Below, in pieces: positions 3,685-15,257 of a stretch of DNA of 64,000 nucleotides (positions are counted from its first letter, which is position 1; each line of letters begins with the position of its first letter). Source of the stretch: a virus; IMG/VR virus record IMGVR_UViG_3300030521_000002, positions 11,294-75,293 of that record. One strand, 5' to 3'. Both the position numbers and the translations under genes were made by a program. The notes below the pieces were generated by a model. The model searched no databases, was not told the origin of the DNA, and saw nothing but the letters and a program-made list of their open reading frames with translations.

Positions 3685-5042
3685 TCCTCAATCTCCGCAT
3701 AGAGCTTGCGTAACCGATTCGTGAGCTTCCAGCGTTGTTGCTTGTTCTTAGCACCATTGGGCAAGGGCAAGTCCTCACGTTCAATCACATGAATCTTACG
3801 CAAGAACCTGACCAGCACTTGGGTACGTTCCATCGGGTAGTGGGTATAGGCTGCTAAAGTCCCGGTATCCAAGCCTAACGTCGAACGGTAGAGGCAACGG
3901 ACCATCTCCATAGTTTGGCCACTCGCTGTATTGATAGCCACCTTCTTCACCCTCCGCATGACTTCCTCATCAATCGTCTTGCGGTTTAATACCACTGCTA
4001 AGCAACATGCCAACCTTACGAATTGGTGGGTAAGTCTCGTGGGCATTTCTTTAGAGCTACGTTCCTCAAACTTCTGGCCGGGCCTAGCTCGTAAGAAAGC
4101 CGTGAACTCGGCTAACGAAGCGCACGTACCCACAATGGCATCCTCATCAATGGTCAGCATTGAAAGTAAGTCCTCGATGTTGCTCTTGAGCCAATCCACG
4201 TAGCCACCCGTGAGTTGGTAAGCCTCTGCTTTCTCAGGAGTCATTTGACTTTCGGGGTGAGCACTCGATTTCTTCATTACCGAGCGTATAGCCGTGTAGC
4301 CCACCCTTCGCAGAATCTCTGCTTGTTCATCGTGACTTGGGGGATCGAAGAAGACTTTTAGGAACCGATCACCCAATTGGCTTTGGTCCGAGGCTAGCAG
4401 AGCGAACGTGCCCGCCATGATCCAAGGGGTGCGCAATCCCATATAGCGGGTATCTTCATCCTTATTTTTGTAGGTAGAACCTGAAACACCATCGAAGATA
4501 CGCCGTTGCTGGCCCATGATCTCGGCGAAGTTAGCTCCCGAAATGAGCGTATCACCTTCCGGGGTAATTAGCGTCTTACGGTTAATCCTTGAGATGAGCG
4601 AGAAATCCTTACCTTCGCCCCCGCCTTTCCATCCACTATGAAATCCGGTGATGTGCTCCAGGGCATGGCAAGACTTGCTAATTAGCATTCCGTCACAGAA
4701 CTGCGTTTTGCCACTTCCGGCATCAGCAATCACCATGAGAAAGAGCTGGTCCCCAACTTGCTCGGTCGAAGCAGCTACCGCTAGCATGATGCTCAACACG
4801 TCGTCCATCTCGCTTCGCCACTTCATCGCCTTACGCCAAGCATTGATTAAATCCCGGTAACTATTGCAAGGAATGGGTTGAAGCCCGGCGGAACCGTTTT
4901 TAAGGGCCTCATCTTCGTCGCTAGTGAGTGCTAGCTCTAGGGGACGTAATTTCCCTAGTATGGACTCCAAGGCCCGCAATCGGCCTCCTAGGCCCCTAGG
5001 ATTAGACGTTGGTAAACTACCTATCTTAACGGGGGTCGGCAA
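3681..5042 (-). CDS. AAA+/MCM-like ATPase, probable replicative helicase
   Basis: Walker A ADAGSGKT, Walker-B-like LITPEGD, Arg-finger-like GDRFL, C-terminal wHTH-like region; near the primase gene. Confidence 0.65.
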   Translation of the reverse strand: MPTPVKIGSLPTSNPRGLGGRLRALESILGKLRPLELALTSDEDEALKNGSAGLQPIPCNSYRDLINAWRKAMKWRSEMDDVLSIMLAVAASTEQVGDQLFLMVIADAGSGKTQFCDGMLISKSCHALEHITGFHSGWKGGGEGKDFSLISRINRKTLITPEGDTLISGANFAEIMGQQRRIFDGVSGSTYKNKDEDTRYMGLRTPWIMAGTFALLASDQSQLGDRFLKVFFDPPSHDEQAEILRRVGYTAIRSVMKKSSAHPESQMTPEKAEAYQLTGGYVDWLKSNIEDLLSMLTIDEDAIVGTCASLAEFTAFLRARPGQKFEERSSKEMPTRLTHQFVRLACCLAVVLNRKTIDEEVMRRVKKVAINTASGQTMEMVRCLYRSTLGLDTGTLAAYTHYPMERTQVLVRFLRKIHVIEREDLPLPNGAKNKQQRWKLTNRLRKLYAEIEE

Positions 5043-5051
5043 TTTAGCCTC

Positions 5052-5264
5052 CTATCGAGAACAGCGAAGGACCACAATCGCTAGTACTGTGTATCCGGTG
5101 GATTTGACTAATTGACAGAGGATTTCTCTCGGAACTTGCTTGTGCTTTAAGAGGTGCTGACCAGCAATAATCGTATGGCAAATAGCACTGACTCCATGAT
5201 AGCCCAAGCTAACTAAGCACGAAGTATGGTTGAGTTTAGAGAGTTTCGTCATTTGCATCCCCAA
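5052..5264 (-). CDS. Hypothetical protein
   Basis: Fills the gap between the J-domain and ATPase genes. Confidence 0.4.
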   Translation of the reverse strand: MGMQMTKLSKLNHTSCLVSLGYHGVSAICHTIIAGQHLLKHKQVPREILCQLVKSTGYTVLAIVVLRCSR

Positions 5265-10626: not shown

Positions 10627-11373
10627 CTACAAAGCCTTCCCTAGACTAATTAGGGAAGGCTTTTTTATTTGTCCGTTCCGTTTGGAGTAAGCCCATTCGA
10701 CTGAAGCTACCGCCGATCGATAACAGGCTTTGTCAATTTCGCACCCGATAAACTTTCGTCCGGTTTCAACACAAGCTACCCCAGTTGAGCAACCGCCCAT
10801 GCACGGGTCGAAAATTAAAGCATCCGGGGGGGTGGTGTTCTCGATGAGATACCTTAGCAGGGCGGTAGGCTTGTGGTTCGGATGAACCTGACTAGGTTGG
10901 TACACCCTTGCATAACTTAGGATATCTCCCTTTCGCTTAGCTAATGGCCTTCCGCTCGCTTTTGCTAAGTACACAATAAATTCGTATTGCGAACCGTAGG
11001 AATTGTAGAGATCTCCACACCCCCAATTTTGCTTATCCCACACCAGAAGATTCTTCACACTGCCATAGACTTTTTTAGCGAGGGGGAGGACTTCTTCGAT
11101 ATTCGTAGGGGAACAAAAACAGTAGATTGAACCTAGCCCTGACAACTTGGATCGAATCGACGTAAGTATGTCCCCCATAAGCACTAAGCTTTCGTCATTG
11201 GCTATTACTTCCGGGGTTTCAGAGGCAACTCGATGGTTCGTTTGGTAACTGATACCGTAGGGAGGGTCGGTAATGACTAGATCGACCGAGTGCCGTTCCA
11301 ATTGGGGAATGTACTTTCGGCAATCCCCAAAAACGAGGGTACAATCCCCAATTTTCTTAATAATAGGGGGCAT
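10627..11373 (-). CDS. DNA N6-adenine/N4-cytosine methyltransferase (beta class)
   Basis: GDC, TDPPY, HPNHKP, DPCMGGCST, FIGCEID. Confidence 0.9.
   Translation of the reverse strand: MPPIIKKIGDCTLVFGDCRKYIPQLERHSVDLVITDPPYGISYQTNHRVASETPEVIANDESLVLMGDILTSIRSKLSGLGSIYCFCSPTNIEEVLPLAKKVYGSVKNLLVWDKQNWGCGDLYNSYGSQYEFIVYLAKASGRPLAKRKGDILSYARVYQPSQVHPNHKPTALLRYLIENTTPPDALIFDPCMGGCSTGVACVETGRKFIGCEIDKACYRSAVASVEWAYSKRNGQIKKPSLISLGKAL
10631..10669 (+). terminator. Intrinsic terminator at convergent genes
   Basis: AAAGCCTTCCCTA-GACTAAT-TAGGGAAGGCTTTTTT. Confidence 0.8.
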
Positions 11374-12569
11374 TAGCTTTCCTCTTCTTGGGAACTCTTG
11401 TGTCTACGGTCCCCTCGGTCGATTCCGCCTAATACCGGGAATTCTTCAAGATGCTTAAACTCCCCGTCGAACCGATACCGCAGGGAGACTCCCTTTTCGG
11501 TCAGTTCCTTCTTTGCAACGAATTGCGCCCAAGCCTTGATAATCAGGGCCACCTTCTCGGGGTTGCTACTCGCCTCATTCCGCATCTCCACGAGCTTGGT
11601 ATGGAGCAAAAGCAAGTCTTTATGGTTACTAGCTAGCTTCTCCCAAAAGTCACAAGCTTGGTCCCATTGTTCCCAATCAATTACCGATTCGTTGGGGGGT
11701 GTCAGTTCCTTATATTCGTCCTGATTGGAGGTAGCGGCCCCCATGAGGTAAAGCAACCCACAAGCGATACCGGAAGGCATGAGCGTGGTTATCTTCCGGT
11801 GCTTACCCCCATCTTCCTCATAAACGAACTTAGCGGCCTCTAAGATGCGTTCGTGACGCTCGATGAAGTCCAAAGACTCACTATGGGTCCGAAGCCCGCT
11901 ATAGGGATTTAGGAACGCTCCCGTGCGTTGCCAAAGGAACTTCACGGCATACTCAAGAATCTTGCTTACCCGTTCCCGTTGGGCATTATTAAGCCCACCC
12001 TCGCGGAAGTACCCACCACGGTAAATCACATCCGCTAACGATCGAGGTTCCCCGGTGTCGATCGTATTGACTACCTCATCTTGCTCATCGCACCCGAAAG
12101 CGATCAAACAGGCTAAAGTTGGCTCTGTCTTCCAAAATTTCTTCCACTTCGCTTGGTGTTGTTCCCATTCTTGGACGGCCAAGATCAGGCCGATTAAACG
12201 GTGCTGACAACTAATGAGCAACCCGGTCTTGCCTACGATCATGGATTCGAGGTTCAACCGCCACTTACCACATAAGACTTCCTGGCGAATAAGGGAAGCG
12301 TTCGTGGGCTTGTAGGGACGGTTCCCCATATTATTTAGGCAACGAACCTTGGTTCCGTAACCGTCTAACAGGGTGAATTCTGCGCCAAACTTACAATCAT
12401 CGGTTTCGGGTTCCCATCCTAGCAGTAGCTTAGCTTCATCTGCCGTTAGAAAGGGATCACGTTCACCGTTACAAAGCTTGATCGAAACTTCCGGGTAGAT
12501 AATCTCCCTACCATTATTAGCTTTTGGTTTTCTTGTCTGAATAGGTTTCTTTTTTAGTAGTGGGGGCAT
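11373..12569 (-). CDS. ParB/DGQHR-like protein, paralog A
   Basis: NRP...W.LN.E..I....SCQHRL...TIDTGEPR.LADV; strongly similar to 25382-26677. Confidence 0.6.
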   Translation of the reverse strand: MPPLLKKKPIQTRKPKANNGREIIYPEVSIKLCNGERDPFLTADEAKLLLGWEPETDDCKFGAEFTLLDGYGTKVRCLNNMGNRPYKPTNASLIRQEVLCGKWRLNLESMIVGKTGLLISCQHRLIGLILAVQEWEQHQAKWKKFWKTEPTLACLIAFGCDEQDEVVNTIDTGEPRSLADVIYRGGYFREGGLNNAQRERVSKILEYAVKFLWQRTGAFLNPYSGLRTHSESLDFIERHERILEAAKFVYEEDGGKHRKITTLMPSGIACGLLYLMGAATSNQDEYKELTPPNESVIDWEQWDQACDFWEKLASNHKDLLLLHTKLVEMRNEASSNPEKVALIIKAWAQFVAKKELTEKGVSLRYRFDGEFKHLEEFPVLGGIDRGDRRHKSSQEEES

Positions 12570-12590: not shown

Positions 12591-15257
12591 TTAAAGAACT
12601 TCTCCTTCTGACCAATTCTTGGGGTGCCATGTCGCACCGCACGTCAACGGAATTCCAATGCAACCACCAACCGATTCCATGATCTCACGAATCTTCTGGA
12701 TGATAGGGAAATTACCTTTGTTGGACTTGGCTGGCATCTCGATTACCAGCTCATCATGTATCTGAGCAATTATATGATATCCATCCAATGTCTGCAAGTA
12801 ACGATGCACCTTATCCATCGCTCGCATGATTACCCAGCACGCTGAAGATTGGATATGGTAGTTCAAAGCCTGTGTAGGAGAAACTCGCCCCCAAGCACCT
12901 CGATTAAGTTGGATAGGATAGCCGCGATCAGGGTCTACTTCCTTATCTGGCATTGTTTCAACATGGCCATTCTTATTCGCTAGGTTAATGTACTTTTGAT
13001 TAAGTTTGGTGTGCTCCTTCAAACGGTCTTTAACTAATCTCCATGCGCCTTTTTTATGGGCTGCTCGATCGCAAGTTTCTTCCCCACCTGAATAAGAATA
13101 GGCGAAGCCAAAATTCTTGACATGCCCATAGGTGCTTTTATAGGTTTCTCTGAAAGCACCTTTTTGTTCTGCTAGTGGAAAGAATAACTCTGGGTAAATA
13201 ATACTCGCGTTCATCAAGTGGTAACTACCAAAAAATGGTGGCTCATCTGGCTTCTCAAAAATTTCAATCATTACCTGCTCACCACTTTCATAGGCCGGCA
13301 GGCGAAGCTCTAAATTATCGTAATCAATGGATACCCACTCTTTATCTGGCGTGGGTCCAAAACAATAACGAAGATTGAAGTTTTCTTTCTTGCTAATGTT
13401 CTGCTCGTTCGGATTCGAGGAAGACCAGCGAAGGGTTGCCGTGCCAACGCAATTCAAGTTAGGATGAAGCTTATACCAACCTACACTACGTGTTTCCAAG
13501 TCTTCCTGTGTATAATTTGACCGATCGTTGACTGACTGGCCAATCCAAATTTTAGAGCCAGTTTCTCTTGGCTTAGTAACCCCGCTGCATAAATTTGACG
13601 AATCTCCCGAACCTGATCTTCTGTTAGTTTCGCCTTGGCTACTGCTTCTCCCCTGGCTGCCAACATTGGGTTGATTACCAGCGGGTGCTCTGCTCCCCGT
13701 CTTATTTTCTCCGGGTGTGTTCTCGATCCGCTCCGATCCCCTCTGGCCAATCTTTCGGGTTTGAATCGGCTCCAGTGCATCTCCCCTCTCGGCAACCTTT
13801 CCGGGTAAAGTCTCGATCCGTTTCTGTCCCCCGTCGCTTGTCTGTTCTTGGCTACCATATCTGCCGAGTTGTCTTTGTTTGTTCCCAATACTAAGTGATC
13901 CGGGTTTACACAACTTGGGTTGTCGCAGGTGTGCATTACTATTAGGCCCTCGGGAATGGTCCCCTTGAATAGCAGGTAACTCACACGATGGGCCTTGTTT
14001 TGACCCACCACGTGAAATTGTCCGTACCCGTTCTTGAATTTCCCCGCTATCCAAATCCAGCATGTTTCCGTCTTCTGAACCTTGGCCAGAAACTTGACTA
14101 AAACTTTCTTCATTGTCTGTGGGGTCATTGGCATGACGAACCTCGATATATTTCCAAAACCGTTTGTAACCATCCATATAAGCGCAGGCTGTATCCATCT
14201 GCCTTTTGCTTCTAAGCGAGTTTATGAAAGCAAGCGGCTTACTTCTTGGCTTGAGGGATGTTTGATAATGTTCAATCGTATCTTTATTGAGAGATGGGGC
14301 ACCATTCTCAGTCCTGTTGACCACTTCCAATTTTAATACGTCGAATATGAAGGTTGTCAGGGATTTGTTATTTCCAGATTTAGGCAGCTTAAGATCATAA
14401 TTATAGCCCTTGGCTAAGTTTATACAAACTCTTTCAGCTATCCCGCTTCTTTCACGGTAATCCTCGAACAACTCATCTACCCTAGACCCACTGACAGTAA
14501 TTCCACGTTCTTCCATCGCATAGGCTACCGGTAATACTTTCAACCGCTCTTGGTAAATCTTCCACAATCCACGCCGTTCTAGTTCTTCTTTTTGCACCTT
14601 GAACAAAGCCAATGTCACAGCACTGTCGGCATTGGCATAGATATTACACACGTCATGCCAAGGATGGTCAGCCTCATACCCATCCTCGATTGCGATGCAC
14701 CGGGCTAAATAGGAATCGAATTTCCAAACCTTCTCCTTAGCGCTCGGCATCTCGGGCAAACCCTTCTTAGCGATTCGCCAGCCCTTCTTCTCGGCAATCG
14801 CCCTAGCGGCCTTGGTAGCCTTTTCTAAGGCATCCTCATACGGTTGGATATTGATCCCCAGCCATTCCAAGGCTAGGTCAGTTAAGTTATGGGGAGCATT
14901 GGAAGCTAAAAGATGGGCAGCTAAGAGTGTGTCGAGTACCTTCTCCCAAGGCCAAGCAAAATCCAGCTCATTATCAGCATACAAATGGATGAGCATCCCA
15001 GCGTCAAATTTCGCGTTGTGCAAAATCAGATGATCCGCCCCGTAGATCAAGTCCCTGATTTCCAATAGCTCTGACTTGGGGGCGATAACTGAGCGATCGT
15101 GAGGATTGAGTTGCCATTCCCAAAAGGTATTTAACCCTGCTTCATTGCAAGTCGTTACCAGAAATGGCCGAGCACCGAAGTAAAGATCAAGGCCGCTCGA
15201 TTCAGTGTCTACTGACAGAAGTTTTGGGGTAAGCTTCTTGCTTATTGGTTTCGGCAT
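12591..15257 (-). CDS. polA: Family A DNA polymerase with a ~220-aa in-frame low-complexity insert
   Basis: Exonuclease motifs DTESSG and HNAKFD; TATLRWSSSNPNEQNI; motif A DYDNLELR; motif B KNFGFAYSY; motif C IHDEL. Confidence 0.92.
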   Translation of the reverse strand: MPKPISKKLTPKLLSVDTESSGLDLYFGARPFLVTTCNEAGLNTFWEWQLNPHDRSVIAPKSELLEIRDLIYGADHLILHNAKFDAGMLIHLYADNELDFAWPWEKVLDTLLAAHLLASNAPHNLTDLALEWLGINIQPYEDALEKATKAARAIAEKKGWRIAKKGLPEMPSAKEKVWKFDSYLARCIAIEDGYEADHPWHDVCNIYANADSAVTLALFKVQKEELERRGLWKIYQERLKVLPVAYAMEERGITVSGSRVDELFEDYRERSGIAERVCINLAKGYNYDLKLPKSGNNKSLTTFIFDVLKLEVVNRTENGAPSLNKDTIEHYQTSLKPRSKPLAFINSLRSKRQMDTACAYMDGYKRFWKYIEVRHANDPTDNEESFSQVSGQGSEDGNMLDLDSGEIQERVRTISRGGSKQGPSCELPAIQGDHSRGPNSNAHLRQPKLCKPGSLSIGNKQRQLGRYGSQEQTSDGGQKRIETLPGKVAERGDALEPIQTRKIGQRGSERIENTPGENKTGSRAPAGNQPNVGSQGRSSSQGETNRRSGSGDSSNLCSGVTKPRETGSKIWIGQSVNDRSNYTQEDLETRSVGWYKLHPNLNCVGTATLRWSSSNPNEQNISKKENFNLRYCFGPTPDKEWVSIDYDNLELRLPAYESGEQVMIEIFEKPDEPPFFGSYHLMNASIIYPELFFPLAEQKGAFRETYKSTYGHVKNFGFAYSYSGGEETCDRAAHKKGAWRLVKDRLKEHTKLNQKYINLANKNGHVETMPDKEVDPDRGYPIQLNRGAWGRVSPTQALNYHIQSSACWVIMRAMDKVHRYLQTLDGYHIIAQIHDELVIEMPAKSNKGNFPIIQKIREIMESVGGCIGIPLTCGATWHPKNWSEGEVL
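13481..14134 (-). mobile_element. HNH homing endonuclease nested in polA (+1 frame)
   Basis: CWIW...GYGQF...AHRVSY...VMHTCDNPSCVNPDHL..GT..DN..DM; C-terminal AKLTEDQVREIR HTH; GAGG RBS 7 nt before ATG 14134. Confidence 0.9.

Follow-up and report, generated by a model that had tools for sequence, protein, structure and literature searches.

We report here that the gene of a family A DNA polymerase (polA), encoded in a 64,000-nucleotide (nt) stretch of the IMG/VR virus record IMGVR_UViG_3300030521_000002 (hereafter, the window), contains a second gene, apparently for an HNH_3 family homing endonuclease, which occupies the +1 frame of polA, and that the polymerase frame continues across this gene without a single stop codon. 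The open polA frame lies far beyond what chance would give and shows that selection has acted against stops. We consider it highly probable that the locus is a hidden homing endonuclease insertion of the type recently described as the ShiLan domain (Arsenault, Gosselin & Gogarten, Genes 2025, PMC11855218), located in polA and read through without splicing.

The open reading frame (ORF) calls agree with a preliminary description of this locus, which placed a complete HNH gene, preceded by GAGG and starting at ATG 14134, in the +1 frame of an 888-amino acid (aa) polA ORF. The features relevant to the argument are as follows (window positions).

12591..15257, minus strand: polA, family A DNA polymerase ORF, 888 aa, uninterrupted (Pfam)
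14844..15224, minus strand: 3'-5' exonuclease domain of polA, aa 12-138 (Pfam PF01612)
13479..14153, minus strand: polA insert K369-G593, 225 codons, between GY.RFW and WY.LHP, stop-free and polar in the polA frame (alignment with insert-free relatives)
14141..14144, minus strand: GAGG, Shine-Dalgarno (SD)-like sequence within polA codons I371-E372-V373 (from the sequence; putative function)
13481..14134, minus strand: HNH_3 (His-Me finger) homing endonuclease gene, 217 codons and a TAG, +1 relative to polA (Pfam HNH_3)
13865..13996, minus strand: predicted catalytic His-Me finger and zinc-binding core of the HNH protein, about aa 47-90 of 217 (HNH_3 match at residues 60-103 of a 230-aa version)
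12609..13478, minus strand: part of polA following the insert (aa 594-883), palm and fingers; motif A is DYDNLELR, motif C is HDE (PF00476)

Selection against stop codons in the polA frame

Across the HNH ORF, the polA frame contains no stops, as initially claimed, whereas the other forward frame contains 18 and the reverse frames 8-11 each; the HNH frame has only its own terminal stop. The HNH gene starts at polA offset 1084 (1 mod 3), i.e., each polA codon in the overlap consists of the third position of one HNH codon and the first two positions of the next, and a stop in the polA frame requires an HNH codon ending in T to be followed by a codon starting with AA, AG or GA. There are 63 codons of the latter kind in the HNH gene, and the codon preceding them ends in G (25), C (21) or A (17), but never in T. 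The preliminary description had formulated the same rule, which stands, along with the observation that no such codon follows a T; its count of about 46 codons does not.

When the synonymous codons of the HNH gene were permuted within the gene, the polA frame remained open in 0 of 20,000 permutations (P < 5e-5), with a mean of 8.18 stops (standard deviation 1.99) and a minimum of one. This shuffle had been set beforehand as a result that could overturn the proposal, and its outcome is strongly in favor of it. The comparison with the rest of the window leads in the same direction: in 28 other ORFs (11,032 codons), the same frame relation yields 16.7 stops per 218 codons; none of the 4,935 windows of 218 codons in these ORFs is open or has fewer than five stops, and the longest stretch without a stop extends over 71 codons. 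For the free-standing relatives of the HNH gene in the fetched loci (n = 67), the corresponding average is 18.3 stops per 218 codons. Codons ending in T make up 12.8% of the nested HNH gene, compared with 28.8% in the other genes of the phage.

The host polymerase and the nested endonuclease

The polA product matches PF00476 (DNA_pol_A, 6.7e-29, aa 582-883, profile positions 92-380) and PF01612 (DNA_pol_A_exo1, 5.6e-06, aa 12-138), both above the cut-off, and contains the DxE, D and YxxxD motifs of the exonuclease as well as the aspartates of polymerase motifs A and C. The window polA preserves each of the 49 residues that are invariant in an alignment of 60 family members, among them D17, E19, D85, Y207 and D211 in the exonuclease and D645, E650, K714, H834 and D835 in the polymerase part. 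In the AlphaFold2 model, 610 residues have a predicted local distance difference test (pLDDT) score of at least 90 and form a Klenow-like enzyme fold, for which Foldseek retrieves Klenow, Bst and phage G20c Pol I at E ~1e-20, with template modeling scores of up to 0.80 (target-normalised). The 568 homologs of this polymerase are mostly 650-710 aa long; in the phage GenBank collection, only distant relatives (<30% identity) were found.

The 75,293-nt record, for which CheckV gives a completeness of 100%, contains one PolA match and no PolB match, i.e., polA is the sole DNA polymerase detected. A scan for promoters and terminators found nothing inside polA.

The HNH ORF in full extends over 13481..14173 on the minus strand (the 230-aa version), and the start that is consistent with the family is ATG 14134, 6 nt from GAGG. 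The profile match (Pfam HNH_3, 6.6e-14; 51.7 bits against a curated cut-off of 24.8), together with conserved zinc ligands and catalytic His and Asn, identifies the predicted product as an HNH_3 (His-Me finger) endonuclease; HNH/endonuclease families of PHROG match it as well, with E-values down to 7.5e-30. There are 1276 homologs, many of them 200-220 aa long, the best of which are ~50% identical over 94-100% of the length. All 14 residues invariant in a 44-sequence alignment are retained (C25, W28, G38, R50, H68, C70, D71, C75, H80, G84, N89, D92, K96 and G162). The AlphaFold2 model of the HNH frame has a mean pLDDT of 92.6; the His-Me finger homing endonucleases I-PpoI and I-HmuI rank at the top of the Foldseek search with this model, albeit with weak E-values (0.04-0.05), and the C-terminus resembles helix-turn-helix domains. 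By these criteria, both proteins are intact and look functional.

Boundaries of the insert and the loop encoded in the polA frame

Alignment with PolA homologs that lack the endonuclease confirmed the proposed boundaries. The region of the query from residue 361 to 593 takes up 693 nt in the window compared with 36-60 nt (rarely up to ~180) in ~160 insert-free loci from IMG/VR and Joint Genome Institute (JGI) metagenomes. The net added DNA is thus ~650 nt, against 654 nt of the HNH ORF, and the length of the insert is a multiple of 3. The HNH ATG is located 19 nt past the codon of W368, and only two bases of the insert remain after the TAG, so that the extra DNA essentially consists of the SD sequence and the HNH gene, in accord with the original view that these two fill the insert.

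Read in the polA frame, the HNH DNA (residues 384-582) is modeled by AlphaFold2 with pLDDT below 50, about 30, and without secondary structure, which fits the earlier suggestion that the off-frame translation is accommodated as a disordered loop. No Pfam family, Hint and intein domains included, matches the insert in this frame at E<=1. Its grand average of hydropathy (GRAVY) is about -1.23 to -1.25, and hydrophobic residues account for 17% of it compared with 35% in the remainder of polA.

The insert sits in a variable loop, ~17 residues before the most conserved stretch of the family, T.RWSS..PNEQNISK, which would be the kind of sequence that homing endonucleases usually target.

Distribution of the insert among related polymerases

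Inserts of 160-190 residues occupy this position in five other polymerases of 842-917 aa (P0026, P0057, P0109, P0121 and P0122), all or most of which come from Logan assemblies. These inserts were examined by degenerate back-translation, the amino acids possible in the +1 frame being aligned to the window HNH. Those of P0057, P0109, P0121 and P0122 fit the HNH protein in the same frame relation, with z-scores of 11.6-20.5 above shuffles; each of them could encode 21-22 of the 22 HNH residues that are invariant or nearly so, and no stop is forced in the aligned range. The insert of P0026 (residues ~383-548), which is similar in size and polarity, fits the HNH protein in none of the five alternative frames (z from -1.5 to 0.2) and was rejected as the same element; a different nuclease gene may be hidden there.

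In a polA tree of 60 sequences from which the insert columns had been removed, the six insert-bearing polymerases (among the 568 homologs) are scattered: five gains or losses are needed, at least four of them forced by strongly supported branches, and P0121 and P0122 are the only sister pair. The nearest relatives of the window polymerase (P0001 and P0012) lack the insert, and so do those of P0057 (L226-L229, 63-66% identity). Scans of viral, metagenome and genome contig collections recovered polA loci that were all insert-free. This disjunct distribution is the pattern that homing gives, and it would follow that the cassette is free of stops by the time it arrives.

A second case in a RecT-like gene

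Another virus record, IMGVR_UViG_3300014492_000001 (L020), contains a second, independent case of apparent read-through (positions 3964-5121), in which an HNH_3 gene lies within a RecT-like gene. The nested gene (3986..4447, 153 aa) encodes a protein 41% identical to the window HNH, has the same frame relation to its host, begins just past codon seven of the RecT-like gene and is preceded by AAGGAG 7 nt upstream of its start. The host gene matches phrog_561 at 2.7e-18, and its likely ATG overlaps the stop of an upstream gene for a PD-(D/E)XK exonuclease. Here, too, the host frame has no stops, compared with a permutation mean of 4.6 (P = 0.0012; T3 0.12).

Proposed mechanism

From the features described above, we infer read-through translation, activity of the looped polymerase, internal initiation at the HNH gene, the cleavage target and homing, as parts of the following scheme. 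A mobile cassette, consisting of a short leader with an SD sequence and a complete HNH_3 gene, would have been copied into polA at a variable loop on the protein surface, and the second frame of the cassette would stay stop-free through the avoidance of T-ending codons before codons starting with AA, AG or GA. Ribosomes that initiate at the polA ATG would read straight through, and the resulting polymerase would be full length, with ~200 residues forming a disordered polar loop, such that neither RNA splicing nor protein splicing would be involved in polA production. The endonuclease would be made separately from the same mRNA, by internal initiation at its own SD sequence and ATG. In co-infection, the HNH protein would presumably cut polA alleles that lack the insert, and repair would copy the cassette in (homing).

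A more far-reaching hypothesis is possible, with the balance tilting slightly against it, namely, that the HNH_3 lineage has evolved the stop-free second frame, via depletion of T-ending codons, as a portable, heritable adaptation, so that a frame-neutral cassette colonizes unrelated replication and recombination genes with neither intron nor intein, the present examples being the sole detected DNA polymerase of one phage family and the RecT-like annealing protein of L020. If this is the case, the cassette spreads by homing among polymerases that are only 40-55% identical, a replicative polymerase works with a parasitic loop of 200 residues, and the ribosomes that translate polA through the nested gene may throttle the synthesis of the endonuclease.

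Alternative explanations

The alternative that fares best is that the insert is translated but the loop is subsequently cut or removed, by proteolysis or by an unrecognized reaction at the protein level, leaving two associated chains or a religated one. We regard this as unlikely. A loop predicted to be fully disordered would be accessible to proteases, and split versions of polA exist in the family, namely, the separate exonuclease and polymerase ORFs of locus L102 and the N-terminal fragments of four relatives that end at the same site. However, the insert has no intein-like ends (it starts with K after RFW and ends with SVG before W), as had been noted from the outset, and no Hint or intein domain is detected in it; there is no space for splicing blocks beside the HNH gene, and no specific protease site is indicated. 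Furthermore, removal at the protein level still requires read-through and is, in this respect, a variant of the explanation that we prefer.

The intein proper was considered as a separate candidate and rejected: blocks A, B, F and G of the Hint fold and the C/S/T...HN ends are absent, the insert ends being K...G, and the model has pLDDT below 50 and no strands. Likewise rejected was a split gene of the type of Aeh1 nrdA/mobE, as polA contains neither a stop before the HNH gene nor an SD-led in-frame start after it; given the lack of such a restart, a two-chain enzyme produced by reinitiation is unlikely.

Less plausible still, and in our assessment quite improbable, is removal of the insert in RNA, by a divergent self-splicing intron with a core that overlaps the HNH ORF, or its bypassing by ribosomes, in which case the open frame would be irrelevant. 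Introns classically carry HNH genes in phage polymerase genes, such as I-HmuI in SPO1 and I-PfoP3I (PMC3428280), and broken alleles are found at the same polA site in relatives. Nevertheless, no intron family of Rfam matches at E<=10, only ~20 nt of the insert lie outside the HNH ORF, and the predicted RNA fold of the insert is no better than that of shuffled sequences (z = -0.43). A group I intron carrying the HNH ORF, which the preliminary description had already discounted, was rejected on the same grounds, there being no match to a ribozyme core and the ORF filling the insert. As for bypassing, the known case, T4 gene 60, spans 50 nt as opposed to 675 nt here. Above all, removal in RNA leaves unexplained the purge of 8-17 expected stops and the open frame in at least four other lineages; splicing or bypassing would give no reason to purge stops.

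It is very improbable that one of the two genes is dead, with polA a pseudogene disrupted by the HNH gene, or the HNH gene a relic that leaves just a polymerase loop. Homing endonuclease genes often decay after fixation, but here the HNH ORF is full length, retains all the invariant residues and an SD-led ATG, and is modeled with high confidence, whereas polA preserves every residue invariant in the family, and no other polymerase was found in the genome, which makes a dead polA unlikely. The sporadic distribution of the insert also indicates recent mobility. That the open frame results from chance or from an assembly chimera is hardly credible, despite the locus being known from a single metagenomic contig, considering the permutations and the genomic windows, none of which is open, the homologous inserts in other data sets, and the identical contig obtained with a second assembler. 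Specifically, the one public run that holds the window sequence, a root metagenome, was independently assembled in Logan, where an identical 75-kb contig covers the polA region; this contig comes from one run, possibly the window's own source, and hence excludes an assembler artefact only.

Several observations weigh against unspliced read-through of a homologous cassette as we propose it. The polarity of the loop is nearly automatic in this frame relation (GRAVY of -1.15 in shuffles compared with -1.23 observed) and the test for extra selection on it is weak (p ~0.14 for GRAVY and p ~0.02 for the hydrophobic fraction), so that polarity provides no independent evidence of selection on the linker, which leaves the purge of stops as the one clear sign that selection has acted on the polA frame. 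The hidden HNH ORFs of the insert-bearing relatives are derived from protein sequences only. Four N-terminal polA ORFs of 360-378 aa (P0244, the ORF of which is located on a 78.8-kb contig, P0245, P0247 and P0248) end 4-9 residues past the same GY.RFW motif, suggesting that frame-breaking occupants of this site, a split gene or an intron, probably exist in other lineages. Finally, covariance models, the space limit and the RNA fold do not prove that splicing is absent.

Comparison with known systems

The closest precedents for the window locus are the ShiLan domain and the insertion in Pacc40 gp60, with hidden, out-of-frame HNH genes in DNA methylases of mycobacteriophages. The preliminary description had presented read-through as another, new route by which an endonuclease is tolerated in an essential gene; in this respect it was anticipated by the 2025 report (PMC11855218). 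In that system, the HNH gene starts 18 bp into the insertion in the methylase gene and stops within its last four bases; the host frame is open, there is neither intein nor intron, the insertion is predicted to form a loop and its distribution is disjunct; and free-standing relatives of the HNH gene adjoin the host gene in Tiff81 and Sashimi. The evidence presented there is computational only, and the methylase is described by the authors as not essential. The two systems thus have in common an insertion relative to insert-free homologs, an open host frame and a same-strand HNH gene that fills the insert, starting ~18-19 nt into it and stopping in its last few bases, along with the lack of intein motifs and of a detectable intron, the predicted disordered loop and the disjunct distribution. 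Free-standing HNH genes beside the host gene likewise have counterparts here, in the loci L075, L077, L081, L092 and L097. The differences concern the host gene, which is the sole detected DNA polymerase here and a non-essential methylase in ShiLan; the HNH start, with a canonical SD sequence and ATG here as opposed to the leaderless GTG proposed for ShiLan; and the source, an uncultured phage from a root metagenome compared with an actinobacteriophage. The present analysis also quantifies the selection that keeps the frame open, whereas no such quantification is given in the accessible portion of the ShiLan report (PMC11855218).

Homing endonuclease genes that lie out of frame or antisense are known from inteins as well, namely, a cyanobacterial dnaX intein (bioRxiv 10.64898/2026.09.14.751524) and inteins of actinobacteriophages (bioRxiv 10.1101/2025.01.02.630785). 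These inteins share with the window locus an endonuclease overprinted in the second frame of an in-frame insertion in a replication gene and the unstructured character of the overlap in the host frame. However, in these inteins, Hint splicing domains flank the overlap and the insert is excised from the protein, whereas the window insert lacks splicing blocks and C/S/T...HN ends and leaves no space for them.

In Aeromonas phage Aeh1, a free-standing homing endonuclease gene, mobE, splits the host gene nrdA, and in phage SPO1, the HNH endonuclease I-HmuI is encoded in an intron of the polymerase gene. Another intron-borne HNH gene in a phage polymerase gene is that of I-PfoP3I in Pf-WMP3 (PMC3428280). 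All these systems resemble the window locus in having an HNH gene in an essential phage replication gene, beside a conserved coding stretch. In contrast to the window locus, where the frame is open and neither a restart nor a ribozyme was detected, the host frame in each of them ends, resulting in two chains or requiring RNA splicing.

The overprinted genes Rz/Rz1 of phage lambda and B, E and K of phiX174 arose in place, and both products serve the phage. These genes have two-frame coding in common with the window locus, which instead combines a mobile selfish gene with a passive linker.

Other mobile DNA around this polymerase family

Several additional arrangements were observed in the family. 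Free-standing relatives of the HNH gene (31-49% identity), encoded on the same strand, directly adjoin insert-free polA genes, upstream or downstream, in eight loci (L075, L077, L081, L092, L097, L165, L198 and L205; L168, L173 and L245 are the same contigs as members of this set), and some of them overlap or abut the polA start. In L150 (2001-2736), a duplicated N-terminal polA fragment of 41 aa is followed by an HNH-like ORF directly upstream of an intact polA, an arrangement that may be the footprint of an endonuclease gene insertion. In L102 (2480-5349), the gene of a 241-aa DNA methyltransferase (DPPYGIG) splits polA into ORFs of 232 aa (exonuclease) and 480 aa (polymerase), with abutting start and stop codons. 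L171 (3219-4148) contains an in-frame insert of 310 aa within the PNEQNISK motif of polA which, with a weak match to Hint (E = 0.0033), is probably an intein. Five polymerases (P0002, P0010, P0021, P0030 and P0087) have in-frame inserts of 90-140 aa past residue ~341, several of which are annotated as PF14216 (DUF4326). Apparent frameshifts in polA of two relatives, at L065:4185 and L246:2575, may be sequencing errors or real.

In the window itself, polA is followed downstream by two same-strand ORFs (10627-12569, minus strand), one of 398 aa (11373..12569) and one of 248 aa (10627..11373). The stop of the former and the start of the latter share one base at 11373, and the latter contains a DPPYGISY methyltransferase motif.

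Implications

What is new in the present case is the host, a sole and presumably essential replicative polymerase, the quantified selection and the spread within a polymerase family of considerable depth, to which the second case in a RecT-like gene is added. To our knowledge, homing endonucleases in essential genes have been thought to survive only by means of introns, inteins or gene splitting. The ShiLan report of 2025 added a fourth way, in which the parasite is read through in another frame (PMC11855218).

These insertions also affect annotation: such ORFs are called as one long polymerase, gene callers miss the nested nuclease gene, and the off-frame loops contaminate protein databases, where they look like domains. 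The locus described here is a clean experimental system, with an easily assayed enzyme, a defined loop and natural loop-free alleles. Given that the host is a polymerase, that selection to keep the frame open is very strong, that the insert is sporadically spread and that a recombinase gene provides a sister case, read-through looks like a general strategy.

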